From IMG/VR virus record IMGVR_UViG_2529293223_000014: 48,078 bases of DNA, one strand, 5' to 3'. Source of the stretch: a virus (lineage: Duplodnaviria > Heunggongvirae > Uroviricota > Caudoviricetes). Below, piece after piece: positions 33,001 to 47,808 of the stretch (within the stretch, counting starts at the first letter, position 1; every line of letters starts with the position of its first letter). A program made the position numbers.

Positions 33001-36000
33001 TCTCTTTAACTGCATAGTCGACAGTCAGATTCTGAATCTCTCTTGCTGCTCCAACCGCGCCTTTAATTGCTCCTCCCACGCCGGATAACGATTCAGTTAT
33101 CCGGGAAAGAATTCCTTTTTCTTCAGACATATCTAATCTCTCTCAAACTGTAGGGGTGAAGAGATATTAGACGATTTCTCACTGTAGGGGTACAAGGAGA
33201 ACCACCTCGCCTGATGTGGTTAAAAGCAGGCACTCGATGATATCCATGTAATTGCTGTGTGTAGTCTTTGCCCGCCGCAAGTGACGGGCTTTTTTATGTC
33301 TGAAAGCGCACTCGCAACAGCGCGCTCCCCGATATGAAAAAAGGAATACAACCGATGAAACCTGAACACCTCTATCGACTGACGGGGCGCGATGTTCTCC
33401 GTTATCGCCGTAAAAACTTCGATTTGATGACCGGTCTGGCCGTTGCCACTGCGCTCGGTCTGATCATCACTTTCATTCTCCTTGTAGCGAGGACCACAGT
33501 ATGAGTTTAGAAACCAGTCTCGAACTTAATAATCAACTTCTGGCACAACATAATGCGCTGCTTGAACGTCTTATCCGCACAATGGCATCAGGCATTGTTA
33601 TGCATCCTGACACGATTTCACGAGTGCAGGAATGTCGGGATACAGCAACTGAAACTGAAAATATGTCAGCGGCAATGACACTGGATGATCTGGAGTTCAG
33701 CGACGTTATCGCACTGGCTGGTTTCTACCCGGTAGCCACCCCTATCACAGAAGACATGCTGCAACGTGCTGTTGCCTACCGTGATGCTGAAGGCGATAAA
33801 CGAGTTGTTCAGATTGATGCTCTCGACAGCGCATTGCAGGGCGTCAAACGAGCCAGGGCGCTGCTTAAACCTGCTCTCCTGGACCTGTCCCGTAACATCC
33901 TTAAGTTCTGGGACGACCTGCCAACCGTCGGCGAGCGACGTGCTTTTGCCGAGCAGCTACTTGATGCACCTGCGGATGGGCGTGATGAAGTTAAGCCGAA
34001 AAAGGCCAGTAACAAGGATGGAGAACGCACGGGGCCGTTTTACGTCAAAAATGTATCCGGCACAGCAGCCAGTGAACTCCACACCTTACGCAAGTTGAAC
34101 GAGATGCTGAAAAAAGGCCATATCGAGATCAACCGTGTTGAGTACCTTCAGCTGCAGGAAGAATTTGCACGCAGAGACGCAGCAAATTCCAGCCAGAATA
34201 ATGACGCCAAAGATGACCATACAATTGATTTCGCGGCACTACGCAAACAAGCTGAAGGGTTGATCCTCCAGTTAGCAAAAGGGGGCTACCGGGCAGAAGC
34301 TATTGCAATTCTGGAAAAACAGGGAGCCAGGAAACTTGGTGAAGTAACGGATGAAAATCTCGCTGAAGTAATCACCCTGGCTGAAAAAGCACTGGAGGGT
34401 TAATCATGCCAGACGTTCACGCACAACTTTCTCCATCATCAGCGCATCGATGGATGCGCTGCCCAGGAAGTCTGGCGCTGGAGGCCACACAACCGGATAA
34501 AGAAACAACTTTTGCAATCGAGGGCACTGCAGCGCACGCGCTTGCTGAAAAAGTTCTACGAAACAGGCAAACCCACCCGGAACACTACGCCGGATGCAAT
34601 GTTTCTATGTTTCTCGGCTCATACCCCCTTCACGAAAATCCTGATGATACATCTGGCCCACAGGTGGATGATGAAATGGTCGAAGCCGTCGGCCGGTATG
34701 TTGATACGGTCTGGACTCTTGCAAAGAATAATGAACTATTGGTTGAACAACGTGTTGATTTCTCACATATAACGGGTGTGGAAGAATCTTTCGGAACTGC
34801 CGACGGCATAATCATCGCTGGTAACGAATTACAAATCCACGACCTGAAATATGGCAAAGGCGTCCGCATTGATGCAGAACAAAATGAGCAACTACAACTG
34901 TATGCTCTGGGTGCGCTTGAACAATTCAGCATGCTGTATGACTTTGAAACTGTAAGATTATTTATTCACCAACCAAGGCTCAACCACGTTTCAGAATGGT
35001 CGTTAACCGTACAGGAACTTCAGTCTTTCGGTGAACGGGCGCTGGAGGCCGCAACCAGTGCGATCCTTGTTCTCAATATTGCTGAATGCGAAGGCATTGA
35101 GACACTACCGCTGGAAAACTTCATACCTGGAGAAAAACAGTGCCGCTTCTGTAAAGCAAAAGCTATTTGCACTGCCCAGAAAATGCAGCATTTACAAACA
35201 GCGGCCAGCGATTTTGAAGATCTGACAAAGCCTGTCAGCGAAATAATCACCAATGCCAGCGCACGTGTACCTCTGTTAACCATTGAGCAGCTTGCAGAGA
35301 TCTATAGCCAGGCCGACTTTATTGAATCCTGGCTAAAGGCAGTACGGGACCGGGTTCACAATGAACTCAATGCCGGACATCCGGTACCGGGGTTTAAACT
35401 GGTAACAGGAAAACAAGGTAACCGGGCCTGGAGTGACGAAGAGGCAGCTCGCGCACTTCTGAAGGATCAGTTCAGGTACAAAACTGAAGAAGTATTCGAC
35501 TTTAAACTTATTAGTCCCACAAAAGCCGAAAAACTTATCAAAAAGGCCAGTCCGCGCCGTTGGTCAAAAGTCGAGGCACTGATAACACGAGCTGATGGTA
35601 AACCCACCGTCGTTCCCGAGTCAGACCCACGCCCCGCACTCAATATCAACCCTGTAAATGATTTCGACGACGTATCCGACGATACGCTAACCGCAGACCT
35701 CATCTGATTTAAGGAGGTTATTTGGATCAAGAATATTTAAATGAATGCTTCCGGTATCACAATGGCGTTTTAATATGGAAATATCGTCCGCTCACCCATT
35801 TTAAAACCCGGCGAGACTATTTGTCCTGGAATGCTAAATATGCAGATAAGCAAGCGGGACATATAAGGCCGGACGGGTATTATCACGTAAGTGTAAACGG
35901 TCGGAAAATGTTGTTACATCGCATCGTCTGGGTTATGCATAACGGTAGTATCCCCTCGGGATTAGAGGTAGATCACATAGACAAAAATCGGAGCAATTAC

Positions 36001-45000: not shown

Positions 45001-47808
45001 CATTCCAGATGAAAGCACCCGGCTAAAATCCTTCCGGCTGCGAGGTGGTGGTAAGCGCGCGGCGGCGCTGGGCAAAGTGGCGCATAAGTATGTCCGGCGC
45101 TGGATAAATCTCACTGGTACGCCAGCACCGAACGGCCTGGTAGATTTGTGGGGACAATCGTGGTTTGTGGACCAGGGGCAACGTCTCGGGCGCACTTACG
45201 GCGCGTTTACCTCACGCTGGTTCAACTCGATACAGTTTCCGGGGCAGAGCTGGACCAAACTGGAGCCGTTTGCTCACTCACAGGCTGAAATACAGCGAGC
45301 GTTAGCCGATGTGACCCTCTCGCTGGATGCGGCCGACTGGTTCGATGTCAGAGAGCCCGTTCATAACGTGGTCCGCGTGGATATGCCGCCGAAGGCACGT
45401 CAGCAGTATCGTGAAATGGAAAAGGAAATGTTCCTCGAGCTGAACGGCGAAAGCATCGAAGCGCCAAACGCTGCGGCAAAGACGCAAAAGTGTCTTCAAA
45501 TCGCCAGTGGCGCAGTATACACAGACGACACCGGAAGTTGGTCAGAACTGCATGACACCAAACTACAGGCGCTGGACAGCATACTGACCGAAGCAGCTGG
45601 CGCGCCTGTGCTGGTTGCTTATCACTGGAAACACGATCTTGAACGCTTGCTTAAAGCATTTCCTCGCGGTCGTCACCTCGACCAAGATCCACAGACACTA
45701 CGTGACTGGAATTCCGGAAAGATTCCTGTTCTCTTTGCACACCCAGCCAGCGCGGGCCACGGTCTGAACATGCAGGACGGCGGAAATATACTGGTATTTT
45801 TCTCACACTGGTGGGACCTGGAGCAGTATCAGCAAATTATTGAACGTATCGGCCCCACCAGGCAGATACAGGCCGGACACAATCGTCCGGTATTTATTCA
45901 CCACATTATTGCTGCCGACACTATGGACGAAATGGTGATGGAGCGGCGCAACTCAAAACGAACAGTGCAGGACATCCTGCTCGATGCCATGAAAAAGAGA
46001 GGTATAGCATGAGCGAGAAACCCGACGATTTACTCACCCCGGATGAAGTATGCCAAAAGTTAGGTATTACACAAAAAACGCTATGTGAGTGGAATATTAA
46101 GCATCGTCATCGGGCTATCCTGGCACCAATTCGTTTCAGTGCAAAAGTAGTTCGTTATGAGCGCCGAAATGTCGACGCTTTTATTCAAAAGTGTCGCAGC
46201 CAGTATTAACCTCGCCGCCGTAGCAATGCAACCTGCGCAAGTATGCTCCGCTCGTGAGCCTCGAAAGCTTCGCGCTTTAACGCAATCTCTTCCTGTAAAA
46301 TCTCATCAGAAAAGTCGTAATGTTCTGCCATCGGGTCATCTGACTTGCTGGAGTGGTGAAGGCAAAGGAGGCTGATTTCCCTTCGGTCTGATCGGGAATA
46401 GCCTCTTTCCTTCATCAAGGCAATAACATTGCTCTTAAGGAATTTACGGCACATCGTATTAAATGCACCGTCTTTCCCTTTAACAGTCCCATCATGTTTT
46501 ATTCCTTTTACAGCCCCGTCCGGGCTGTATGTTTTCACCAGCTTATCCAGTGACCGTTTTGAAAATGGCTGCATTGGATCACGTGGCTGCAAAAATACAT
46601 AATCCCTGTTGCACTCAGGAACTGAATCACGCCAGGCTTTCTGCTCGTCGATAATCCGCCGGATCTCCGGCGTTATTGGCAGGCGGAAAGCCTTTTGTGT
46701 TTTCATAGCCCCTCGCATGCCGATAACCCCTTCAGGATAAACAATTTCGCCAGTCTCCTCGTGAACGTAGTCCCAGCGCAGGTTATGGACATTAATCGGA
46801 CGAACGCCGGTGATGATCATGAAGCGAACAGCATTCTTCTGGTGTACAGAGGTGCAGGCAGCAACATTGAGCCAGAGTCGGGCGATTGATTCAATATCGG
46901 TAAAAAGCCGTGTGGGGGTAGGTTTCTGTACGCGGGAGGAAACATAATCATCTGGCAGACTGGCGGCAACATTGCGGCCGTTGCAAAGAGTAGGTGCGCA
47001 GAACTTCCAGAACCGACGGAGCTCGGCAAACAACTCCAGGGCGTTATTGTTCGAGCGAGTGGAGATCCACTCGTCCAGTACTTCCACCAGCCGATTGTAT
47101 GTTACGTCGCTGAACACCTCGCGCTCGCCGAACGTTGCTTTAATCCGGTCGATACGCACCCCGTAGGTTGTGAAACTGTCCGGGCTCAGCTTCTGCCGGG
47201 CGACTTTGGCTTTGAGGTCATCCCGGTACATTTCCAGCGCTGCATGTACGGACTCTGCCCGCAGTCCACCGTCAGCCATACCTAGTGCTTTTTCGCGCGC
47301 CAGCTGGATAGCGAGCTCCGGCCACTCGCCAAGCTTTTTACCTTTGAGGCCCATCTTTTTTGGAAACTCGGCGTAAAATGTAACCTTACCGGCTTTGCTG
47401 AAATCGATACGGAGATAGTTCTCTTTTTCGTATTTGGAACGACGAGCCACGCCGGAAGCAGCGAGGATGATTTTGGCGGCAGCAACACAGATTTTCATGT
47501 GTGCGCTGGTATAGGGGGGTTTACAGGCGTCCCATTTTTCAGATGCGGCTAAAACATCGTCATTATTGGGGCTATCCGGATTATGTGTTACAGTGCGCGG
47601 CATTCTCAATCCTTATCTGCGTAGGCGCAGAAAACAAGCTCACACATACAAGTCTTTTCTACGGGACAAAATGCAATGTGTTGCGGCTTTGTGTTACTGG
47701 ACTGAGTTTATCAGGGTTAAATACACTGGATCAACATACAGTAAGTTAATGACAGTAAAGCATATAAACTCGATACAACTTACTGATTTTAAAATGATTT
47801 AACGGTAA

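Follow-up and report, generated by a model that had tools for sequence, protein, structure and literature searches.

An intein with an overlapping nuclease reading frame in the family A DNA polymerase of an Escherichia coli prophage

The family A DNA polymerase gene of a temperate E. coli myovirus contains an intein whose DNA holds two overlapping reading frames. The gene lies in a 48,078-nucleotide (nt) virus record, IMGVR_UViG_2529293223_000014 (Caudoviricetes), which is called the window throughout, and belongs to a replication and recombination module at positions 33501-46012. In the polymerase frame, two halves of a splicing (Hint) domain are connected by a long stretch free of stop codons. 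In the -1 frame, the same DNA encodes an HNH-like nuclease. This arrangement is conserved in relatives, selection acts on the nuclease frame in the middle of the intein, and the polymerase sequence around the insertion bears the footprint of homing. It is probable that the module is a common one carrying two homing elements, and that the intein and its nested nuclease form a two-gene homing unit. The earlier note on this DNA recorded the intein. It did not see that the intein nuclease is a separate, overlapping open reading frame (ORF) in the -1 frame, outside the intein polypeptide.

Anatomy of the intein and its nested frame

The polymerase gene, the intein and the nested ORF are arranged as follows.

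37949-40876, plus strand: family A DNA polymerase precursor with 3'-5' exonuclease and polymerase domains, 975 amino acids (aa); PF00476 (DNA_pol_A) and NCBIfam PolA models
39302-40162, plus strand: class-1 intein of 287 aa in polymerase motif B, with boundaries GKVLELA/C...HN/CGYGGG (slashes mark the splice junctions)
39379-40131, plus strand: nested ORF for a predicted HNH-type homing endonuclease within the intein, in the -1 (+2) frame; ATG at 39379 or 39394, stop codon at 40129-40131; PHROG 374

The insertion in the polymerase is a class-1 intein. It comprises polymerase residues 452-738, beginning with C452, continuing through the TPDH motif of block B, and ending in HN738, which is followed by C739. 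The first Cys, the TxxH motif and the HN/C residues are invariant in an alignment of four family members. The isolated phage vB_EcoM-606R2 (hereafter 606R2) lacks the insert of 861 nt, and removal of the intein leaves a polymerase of 688 aa, compared with 687 aa in 606R2. The intein of the earlier note is thus real.

The Hint halves correspond to intein residues 1-92 and 255-287, and invariant columns are found almost exclusively in residues 1-91 and 262-287. AlphaFold2 models the halves with a predicted local distance difference test (pLDDT) score of about 90, and Foldseek matches them to the Ssp DnaB, DnaX, RecA and gp41-1 mini-inteins with probability 1.0 and E values down to 3e-4. The linker between them (residues 93-254, about 160 codons) is unconserved and free of stops, with a pLDDT of 27-36. 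Pfam detects no endonuclease domain in the polymerase-frame reading of the intein. Splicing is predicted from the intact blocks and from the openness of the host (polymerase) frame in 63 of 65 full-size relatives.

Phage polymerase genes often have group I introns bearing HNH ORFs, and the nuclease here is a separate ORF, as it is in such introns. If the insertion were an intron of this kind, the open polymerase frame would be incidental. However, an Rfam scan of 33000-46500 at E<=1 returned no intron family. The Hint blocks, with Cys1, TxxH and HN/C, are in frame with both exteins, their fold is predicted confidently, and the host frame is selectively stop-free. An intron is extremely improbable.

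The nested ORF has 250 codons from 39379, with a predicted product of about 245 aa, and overlaps codons 27-92 of the N-terminal Hint half (N-Hint) as well as block F of the C-terminal half (C-Hint). It matches PHROG 374, 2081 and 3377 (“HNH endonuclease”), with E values from 4.7e-37 for PHROG 374 to 6.6e-22, and PHROG 1035 (“endonuclease VII”) at E=3e-7. Free-standing homologues with 27-33% identity are annotated as HNH endonucleases in phages of Enterococcus, Ralstonia, Staphylococcus and E. coli. With 36 homologues as alignment, AlphaFold2 models residues 50-240 with a pLDDT of 82-95 and leaves roughly the first 45, which lie over the N-Hint, disordered. Fold searches return weak similarity to PacI and Hpy99I. 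The invariants of the family are a CxC…CxxC pair (a zinc ribbon), YGGRGI, and D-R-x-D…Y-x-P-G-N…N-x-x-N-R, in which the downstream Asn residues are conserved. The nested protein is accordingly called HNH-like, and its nuclease activity is a prediction.

Conservation of the arrangement and selection by frame

Three metagenomic proteins, 33-35% identical over the full length, were retrieved when proteins were searched with the polymerase-frame intein. On the contigs of these three and of a fourth, the Hint halves occupy one frame and a homologous nuclease (40-49% identity) occupies the -1 frame. Scans of viral and genome collections with an intein alignment yielded 93 further loci, the peptide pattern LWDGE[ER]W being used to collect them, and three-frame hidden Markov model searches across all loci gave the frame classes. 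At 63 loci the nuclease is in the -1 frame (E=1e-53 to 1e-106) and the host frame is free of stops. At 13 loci a related nuclease is in the +1 frame, again with a stop-free host frame; these come from Lachnospiraceae, Brevibacillus and phage contigs. Mini-inteins make up 11 loci, and two loci have stops in the host frame. Among 100 loci, none has the nuclease in frame.

The +1-frame branch includes L070-L072, L074, L079-L081, L085, L090-L094 and L096-L099. The 13 loci counted above are those with both Hint halves; L072, L096, L097 and L099 have no C-Hint match. Three shorter inteins (L059, L067 and L068) retain fragments of the -1-frame nuclease.

The polymerase gene of the window is not split, its 975-aa ORF being continuous. 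Host-frame stops are present only in L053 (intein at about 2543-3455) and L055 (3001-3888), two viral contigs with an intact -1-frame nuclease and, after the N-Hint, seven and four host-frame stops, respectively. In both, a Met codon lies about 35 residues before the end of the intein, as expected of a split version. L053 and L055 are candidates for “fractured” polymerase genes, in which a split intein would have an HNH gene between its halves. A similar reading was considered for P0005-P0008, all of which begin near the C-Hint. It was rejected for P0007, the one whose contig (L003) was examined: the contig is merely truncated on the 5' side, and the host frame stays open as far as the contig extends.

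Family A polymerases host at least 84 of the inteins, which occupy three sites: …L[AG]/CGYG…, …GKT/CILGLGYG… and …GGKLxEN/C[VS]Q…. Five host genes (L005, L006, L061, L066 and L085) resemble neither the polymerase nor the SNF2 helicase of the window by BLASTP. The hosts of L005 and L006 may be SNF2-type helicases, judging by a GTPxxNxPxE/C junction motif. The composite of intein and nuclease has evidently moved to new host genes with its frame arrangement kept.

Among isolated phages, tblastn finds the nuclease in 316 records, with at least 80% query coverage in 163; Salmonella phages account for 149 of the 316. Phages with close matches include Salmonella Jerseyvirus, Shigella EP23, Vibrio 97.13, Pseudomonas MR14 and E. 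coli fPoEco01. In the rows inspected, close matches lie under the annotations “DNA polymerase” or “intein-containing DNA polymerase precursor”. Salmonella Jerseyvirus SE2 (L100), which was found through the nuclease and read directly, has an open host frame and a +2-frame nuclease. The SE2 polymerase is annotated as two coding sequences because of a frame break, at about 4452-4565, some 60 codons after the intein. This break may be an old sequencing error unrelated to the intein.

Clustering at 95% nucleotide identity gave 44 family members. In the middle region of these sequences the host frame contains no stop codon, against about 3.4 expected per sequence (about 149 in total). The expectation comes from synonymous resampling of the nuclease ORF with its own codon usage, and is hence conservative. 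For the window itself, zero host-frame stops would arise by chance with P=0.007 under synonymous resampling and 3e-5 under codon shuffling. When the middle region is translated in each frame, mean pairwise amino acid identity reaches 52% for the nuclease frame, compared with 25% for the host frame and 23% for the third frame, in which there are 483 stops. The Hint halves show conservation in the host frame instead, at 50-58% identity.

Substitution patterns were compared in 36 moderately diverged pairs. In the middle region there are 0.12, 0.45 and 0.20 substitutions per site at host positions 1, 2 and 3. Because host position 2 is position 3 of the nuclease frame, substitutions peak at nuclease third positions. 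In the Hint halves they peak at host position 3 (0.27 and 0.31). The identity, stop and substitution statistics together show that evolution in the middle of the intein is that of a nuclease gene, the absence of stops being the only constraint visible there from the polymerase frame.

Another explanation for a junk-like polymerase-frame middle of low model confidence is decay. Here a canonical intein with an in-frame HNH domain would have suffered two recent frameshifts, leaving an untranslated relic in an immobile intein. Decay does happen in the family, as remnant-bearing and mini versions exist (L059, L067, L068, L056, L060), and one copy, in E. coli VL40, is frameshifted. However, the same frame relation recurs across 44 non-redundant sequences whose host frames share only about 25% identity, while their nuclease frame is open, 52% identical and shows third-position periodicity. 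The lack of any in-frame relative among the 100 loci and the extension of the ORF upstream of its core, described below, also speak against a relic. This explanation is largely refuted and must be considered very unlikely.

The extent of the -1 frame gives information about where translation of the nuclease begins. Within the N-Hint the -1 frame has 64 stops, all in host codons 1-29, and none from codon 30 onward in 42 of 42 representatives. The conserved nuclease core starts only near host codon 88. Since the ORF is kept open for about 60 codons upstream of the core, translation appears to start inside the Hint coding sequence. A potential start codon, ATG or GTG, is formed at the junction of a Glu or Lys codon with a Trp codon (the last base of the former plus the TG of the latter) in 41 of 42 sequences. 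Independently of the LWDGE[ER]W pattern, at least 90% of the aligned predicted proteins start at the junction Met, a figure that is biased upward by selection for near-full query coverage. No sigma-70-like promoter was found in 38900-40400. As there is no promoter-like site inside the gene, the simplest source of the nuclease would be the polymerase mRNA, and internal initiation on that mRNA appears the most economical reading.

The two frames could also be joined by recoding, with a -1 shift after the N-Hint and a +1 shift before the C-Hint producing one canonical Hint-HNH-Hint polypeptide. The window does have a U UUA AAC heptamer in the polymerase frame, at codon 73 of the intein and a short distance before the nuclease core, and the -1 frame is open across the N-Hint/HNH junction. 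Yet canonical slippery heptamers occur in only 7 of the 44 members, at differing places, and the nuclease has its own stop in C-Hint block F, so that a precise second shift of +1 would be needed. With recoding, moreover, the host frame would not need to avoid stops, as it does in all 44. Recoding is very improbable, and separate initiation within the N-Hint is preferred.

Homing and comparison with known systems

Evidence for acquisition of the intein by homing is provided by the polymerase sequence flanking it. Over most of the gene the exteins differ from 606R2 at 2-3 positions per 100 nt. In the 100 nt upstream of the insertion site there are 25 mismatches, and over the 300 nt downstream there are 10, 14 and 7 per 100 nt. 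The empty allele of 606R2 reads GKVMELG/LGYGGG where the occupied one reads ELA/C, so that the residue at the +1 position is Leu rather than the Cys that is needed for splicing. This tract of divergence indicates co-conversion, the intein having presumably been acquired by homing from a diverged donor through double-strand-break repair. The candidate target of the nuclease is the 606R2 polA site …GGTAAAGTCATGGAACTCGGT/CTGGGTTATGGAGGTGGT…, around GKVMELG/LGYGGG.

The intein is the second of two homing elements proposed for the module. The first is a free-standing gene:

35722-36237, plus strand: HNH_3 homing endonuclease gene between the DUF2800 and DUF2815 genes; PF13392, E=3.4e-19; PHROG 99, E=8e-60

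606R2 lacks this gene, having 47 nt where the window has 558 nt. Of 5426 complete E. coli genomes, four carry the HNH_3 gene, in the same slot every time, and four carry the intein. The DUF2800 gene of the module occurs in 155 of these genomes (a single copy each, with at least 90% identity in 152). Because each is present in only four genomes against 155 with the module, the HNH_3 gene and the polymerase insertion are sporadic passengers of a commoner module. The earlier note counted at least two, perhaps three, selfish endonucleases. Two are found, the free-standing HNH_3 and the intein nuclease, and a third is without support. The ORFs at 40873-41088 and 41042-41500, candidates for a third, have no nuclease similarity, and the VRR-NUC and DUF2800 genes are core genes in relatives.

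In the proposed mechanism, the class-1 intein in motif B acts as a two-gene unit on one mRNA. Ribosomes in the polymerase frame would read the N-Hint, a meaningless stop-free linker of about 160 residues and the C-Hint, and the Hint domain would then excise itself to leave the 688-aa polymerase. Separate initiation would take place within the N-Hint, at the ATG or GTG of the E/K-W junction in the WDGEEW codons (39394 in the window, with 39379 as an alternative). Reading in the -1 frame would then yield the protein of about 245 aa, with its zinc ribbon and HNH-like nuclease domain. The nuclease would cut intein-less polymerase alleles of related phages and prophages, and repair would copy in the intein together with the nuclease gene.

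Several observations weigh against this mechanism or parts of it. The nested ORF has no match to any Pfam family at E<=1, to an NCBIfam HNH model, or to a PDB sequence. As Pfam and NCBIfam gave no HNH model, the identification of the nuclease rests on PHROGs and homologues. In addition, the canonical first His of HNH nucleases is replaced across the family by D-R-x-D, with invariant Asp and Arg in 37 sequences. Either the catalysis is of a non-canonical type or cutting is done by something other than the nested protein. Among themselves the four intein copies from E. coli are at least 99.8% identical, and thus offer no within-species evidence of ongoing selection. In E. coli VL40 (L101), at the equivalent of about 39619, a 1-nt insertion (GATAC-TTG to GATACATTG) breaks both frames. 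As for the predicted start, the loci were collected with the LWDGE[ER]W pattern, which in part dictates its near-universal occurrence at the E-W junction; SE2, which is independent of the pattern, has the equivalent ATG at a Lys-Trp junction. Finally, the ATG at 39394 is preceded by GGAG with a spacer of 4 nt, which is short for E. coli.

The D-R-x-D site lies at 39961-39972 in the window, or at about residues 190-193 of the nuclease counted from the ATG at 39394. We take its Arg to stand at the position expected for the first His (the general base) of the HNH_3 consensus. The VL40 polymerase is marked as a pseudogene in two pieces by the Prokaryotic Genome Annotation Pipeline (PGAP), and the frameshift could be a real inactivation or a sequencing error.

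Inteins with an out-of-frame nuclease were first described in 1998, and close study of them dates only from 2025-2026. Homing endonuclease homologues in alternative frames and on the antisense strand within inteins are credited to Gorbalenya 1998, as cited in bioRxiv 10.1101/2025.01.02.630785. In that preprint, Gosselin, Arsenault and Gogarten describe actinophage inteins with an endonuclease VII-like homing endonuclease “in frame 3”, and propose invasion by free-standing nucleases. For a cyanobacterial dnaX intein, Phillips et al. (bioRxiv 10.64898/2026.09.14.751524) report frame-specific selection for a LAGLIDADG protein in the +2 ORF; according to the same authors, few broadly distributed out-of-frame examples are documented. 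The 1998, actinophage and dnaX cases resemble the polymerase intein in having a same-strand nuclease in another frame inside a contiguous intein, an open host frame, an in-frame middle without a predicted fold, purifying selection on the nuclease frame and a sporadic distribution. The proposed origin is also alike, namely a free-standing homing endonuclease gene that invaded a mini-intein.

The polymerase intein differs from these cases in its nuclease (zinc ribbon, YGGRGI and D-R-x-D, HNH-like, PHROG 374), in its site (motif B of a family A polymerase) and in occurring mostly among phages with Gram-negative hosts, an E. coli prophage and Salmonella phage SE2 among them. The ORF of the window overlaps about 65 N-Hint codons and C-Hint block F, whereas the actinophage ORFs are described as being largely outside the splicing domain. 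Furthermore, both -1 and +1 versions occur in this one intein family, together with the two candidate fractured versions.

Among the closest known systems are the inteins of Jerseyvirus polymerases (for instance vB_SenS-Ent2 and SE2). They occupy the same polymerase motif, and their nested nuclease is 48-49% identical to that of the window; the frame arrangement of SE2 is also shared. SE2 is unlike the window in being a virulent siphovirus and in its slightly different insertion point (GKA/C..HN/CELGLGYEGG). Jerseyvirus records mostly annotate the polymerase or the intein alone, and in the searchable literature no account was found of an out-of-frame nuclease for the intein in the family A polymerases of enteric phages.

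A hidden HNH ORF in the third frame is also known from phage methylase genes, in insertions of the ShiLan type (Arsenault et al. 2025, PMC11855218). These likewise leave the host frame open, and an internal start has been proposed for them. However, they have no Hint domain and are thought to stay in the protein, whereas complete splicing blocks flank the nuclease ORF here.

Fractured genes are another related arrangement, in which a free-standing nuclease gene lies between the halves of a split intein (Dassa et al. 2009, PMC2677866). L053 and L055 fit this split version, unlike the window, whose host gene is one ORF. The nucleases reported in 2009 were GIY-YIG or Vsr-like and not HNH. HNH genes were predicted to be able to do likewise, so that an arrangement of the L053/L055 type was predicted but not observed by Dassa et al.

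Out-of-frame intein nucleases are thus already known and rare, and the polymerase intein is, as far as sequence can tell, a further and well-supported case. What is distinctive is the nuclease family, the deep overlap with both splicing halves, the use of both alternative frames and the two candidate fractured relatives. A broader reading, towards which we lean slightly, is that the motif-B intein family, present in hundreds of phages, is an obligately two-gene selfish element. In such an element the nuclease would never be fused to Hint and would be overprinted in the -1 frame (+1 in one branch), with its start codon and a purine-rich ribosome-binding stretch inside the WDGEEW codons. Mini-intein, overlapping-gene and fractured forms would all belong to the one family.

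If this is true, the family would provide a genetically tractable E. coli and Salmonella model for the acquisition of nucleases by inteins and for the origin of split inteins. The out-of-frame arrangement is the rule in this large and diverse family of phages, among them an E. coli prophage and virulent phages of Salmonella, whose hosts have easy genetics. Such material could be used to study translation of the nested nuclease, invasion of mini-inteins (“splicing first”), and the passage from contiguous inteins with overlapping nuclease genes to split inteins. There is also a warning for annotation, as calling one ORF per gene hides overlapping intein nucleases. PGAP annotates the polymerase alone at the locus of the window. 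Because gene callers report one of the two ORFs, such inteins look “decaying” or mini and their nuclease is missed.

The replication module and its surroundings

The module is the early-left operon of a temperate E. coli myovirus that has its integration site by yfhL. Along the whole 12.5 kb it shares 99.7% identity with a prophage that E. coli O121 strain 201805972 carries beside yfhL/shoB/acpS. Three isolated phages, vB_EcoM-606R2, -689R2 and -611R5, have core genes that are about 97% identical, with 50% of the region covered. Apart from the polymerase, the main genes of the module are the following.

28958-31219, minus strand: primase-helicase on the cro side, with a Prim-Pol N-terminal domain and a DUF5906/D5-type helicase region; PF09250, E=2.3e-7; PF19263, E=1.1e-13
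33501-34403, plus strand: conserved 300-aa protein, the first large gene of the module; PHROG 6784, E=3.5e-179; no Pfam or NCBIfam match
34406-35707, plus strand: DUF2800, PD-(D/E)XK (Cas4-like) exonuclease, core gene; PF10926, E=1.8e-110; PF12705 (PDDEXK_1), E=4e-10
36234-36782, plus strand: Enc34-type single-stranded DNA (ssDNA)-binding protein (Enc34_ssDNA-bd, formerly DUF2815), core gene; PF10991, E=8.6e-45
42384-42683, plus strand: DUF4406 (nucleoside 2-deoxyribosyltransferase-like) protein; PF14359, E=6.3e-34; PHROG 355, E=3.8e-44
42673-42942 (alternative start 42646), plus strand: VRR-NUC/PDDEXK nuclease, core gene; PF08774, E=1e-3 (weak); PHROG 93, E=1.6e-32
44618-46012, plus strand: SNF2-family helicase, core gene; PF00176, E=6.3e-12, and Helicase_C

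Profile searches support every assignment that had been made from the sequence (DUF2800, HNH, DUF2815, family A polymerase, DUF4406, VRR-NUC, SNF2 and the cro-side primase-helicase), including those to DUF2800, DUF2815 and DUF4406. By Pfam and PHROG, the DUF2800, DUF2815, PolA, VRR-NUC, SNF2 and primase-helicase genes are co-located. Together, the Cas4-like exonuclease, the Enc34-type binding protein, the polymerase, the VRR-NUC nuclease, the SNF2 helicase and, on the other arm, the PrimPol/D5 primase-helicase would make up a self-contained replication and recombination set that takes the place of the lambda O/P and Red genes. No lambda O/P or Red family turned up among the early-region ORFs scanned, although no search was aimed at these genes.

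The module was described in the earlier note as atypical for a lambdoid phage and more typical of some virulent and Gram-positive phages. The word atypical is overstated, given a prophage type that recurs, at 90% or more nucleotide identity, in E. coli (155 of 5426 genomes by the DUF2800 gene); the module is unusual only when set beside lambda itself. By tblastn, DUF2800 homologues occur in 1641 of 50,697 phage records, with phages of Salmonella (452) and Escherichia (260) most numerous, ahead of those of Streptococcus, Bacteroides and Staphylococcus. Given these counts and the three isolates, the module is common and not an oddity. It is an alternative replication set found in virulent and temperate phages of Gram-negative and Gram-positive bacteria. 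As a common alternative to lambda O/P and Red, the module itself matters little. It shares with the Enc34/Jersey-type module all component families in one operon, with the primase-helicase nearby, and homologues widespread in phages. The difference is that here it is found in a temperate phage with a cI/cro/Q circuit, and has antirepressor cassettes between its core genes.

A lambdoid switch joined to a replication module foreign to enteric temperate phages could still be taken as the main point, with DUF4406 perhaps tied to DNA modification. The lack of lambda O/P- and Red-type families among the scanned ORFs, with PolA, DUF2800, DUF2815, VRR-NUC and SNF2 in their stead, would agree with this, as would the cytosine methyltransferase or TIR-like gene that relatives carry elsewhere in the module. 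The frequency of the module in E. coli genomes, in the three E. coli phages and in phage records argues otherwise. A check for modification genes linked to DUF4406 found no methyltransferase or base-modification enzyme among the window ORFs scanned, and DUF4406 itself is exchangeable, having no counterpart in 606R2. Such a chimera is unlikely to be the main point, and a common module with two homing elements remains the preferred reading.

By blastn, the module and 606R2 form collinear blocks of 88-99% identity, broken at six places: the HNH_3 stretch, a Bro-N cassette, the 861-nt polymerase insertion, an AntA cassette, DUF4406 and an Arc/Rha cassette. The polymerase exteins are 93-96% identical to the 606R2 polymerase, the VRR-NUC gene is 88% identical to its “nuclease” gene, and the SNF2 helicase is 94.9% identical to its helicase. 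In RefSeq the polymerase starts at the ATG equivalent to 38042, which would drop an N-terminal WGDLETY stretch that we take to resemble an Exo I motif. The TTG at 37949 is more likely to be the start, in agreement with the start region of the 606R2 polymerase.

Interchangeable cassettes, several of them with predicted antirepressors or small RNAs (sRNAs), sit between the core genes. They contain the following features.

36944-37882 (PGAP start 36980), plus strand: Bro-N domain antirepressor-like cassette; PF02498, E=3.1e-11
36982-37068, plus strand: sRNA-Xcc1-like RNA; Rfam RF02221, 70.3 bits (gathering score 53)
40987-42119, plus strand: AntA antirepressor cassette with upstream RNAs; AntA gene at 41355/41358-42119; PF08346, E=1.3e-24
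40987-41075, plus strand: sRNA-Xcc1-like RNA; Rfam RF02221, 72.8 bits (gathering score 53)
41108-41157, plus strand: c4 a1b1 target RNA; RF03163, below the gathering score
41121-41194, plus strand: isrK-like RNA; RF01394, 50.9 bits, above the gathering score
41220-41303, plus strand: C4 antisense RNA; RF01695, 70.6 bits, above the gathering score
43073-43426, minus strand: Arc-family repressor; PF03869, E=1.7e-10
43726/43768-44574, plus strand: Rha-family regulator; PF09669, E=2.5e-10

The Bro-N cassette stands in the place of a different gene in 606R2, the AntA cassette is unlike 606R2, the DUF4406 stretch (one of several exchangeable cassettes) does not align to it, and other genes take the place of the Arc/Rha cassette (43073-44574). 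An ANR/PerC-like protein is also found between the core genes. The two sRNA-Xcc1-like RNAs are homologous copies at the 5' edges of the Bro-N and AntA cassettes, with the ends GGTCGGG…CCCGACC in common. They may mark cassette boundaries or regulate the antirepressors. The RNAs at 41108-41303 form a set like P1/P7 immI just upstream of the AntA gene, which suggests antisense control of the AntA antirepressor.

The lambda-type switch of the earlier note is present, as a divergent pair of cI-like and cro-like genes together with a Q antiterminator.

31223-31510, minus strand: cro-like helix-turn-helix (HTH) protein; Pfam
31504-32184, plus strand: cI-like repressor with HTH_3 and S24 peptidase domains; Pfam
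27945-28367: Q antiterminator

The immunity block (31223-32184) is unlike 606R2, and its flanks are 98-99% identical. Further to the right are the Q antiterminator, a holin, the small terminase subunit and a Mu-F-like head protein. The “Mu-type tail” that had been proposed is not borne out. A DUF3383 sheath, Baseplate_J and an E217 gp41-like hub mark the tail as contractile, and no specifically Mu tail family matched.

Before the left operon, at 33186-33299 on the plus strand, there is an RprA-like Rfam match below threshold (47.5 bits against a gathering score of 70, E=0.0016), which is probably due to chance. At the far end of the prophage, 931-2757 on the plus strand encodes a 608-aa protein with an LRR_TTSS N-terminus and a C-terminal NEL (novel E3 ubiquitin ligase) domain (PF14496, E=2.4e-75). 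From these domains, the product is predicted to be cargo resembling a type III secretion effector.

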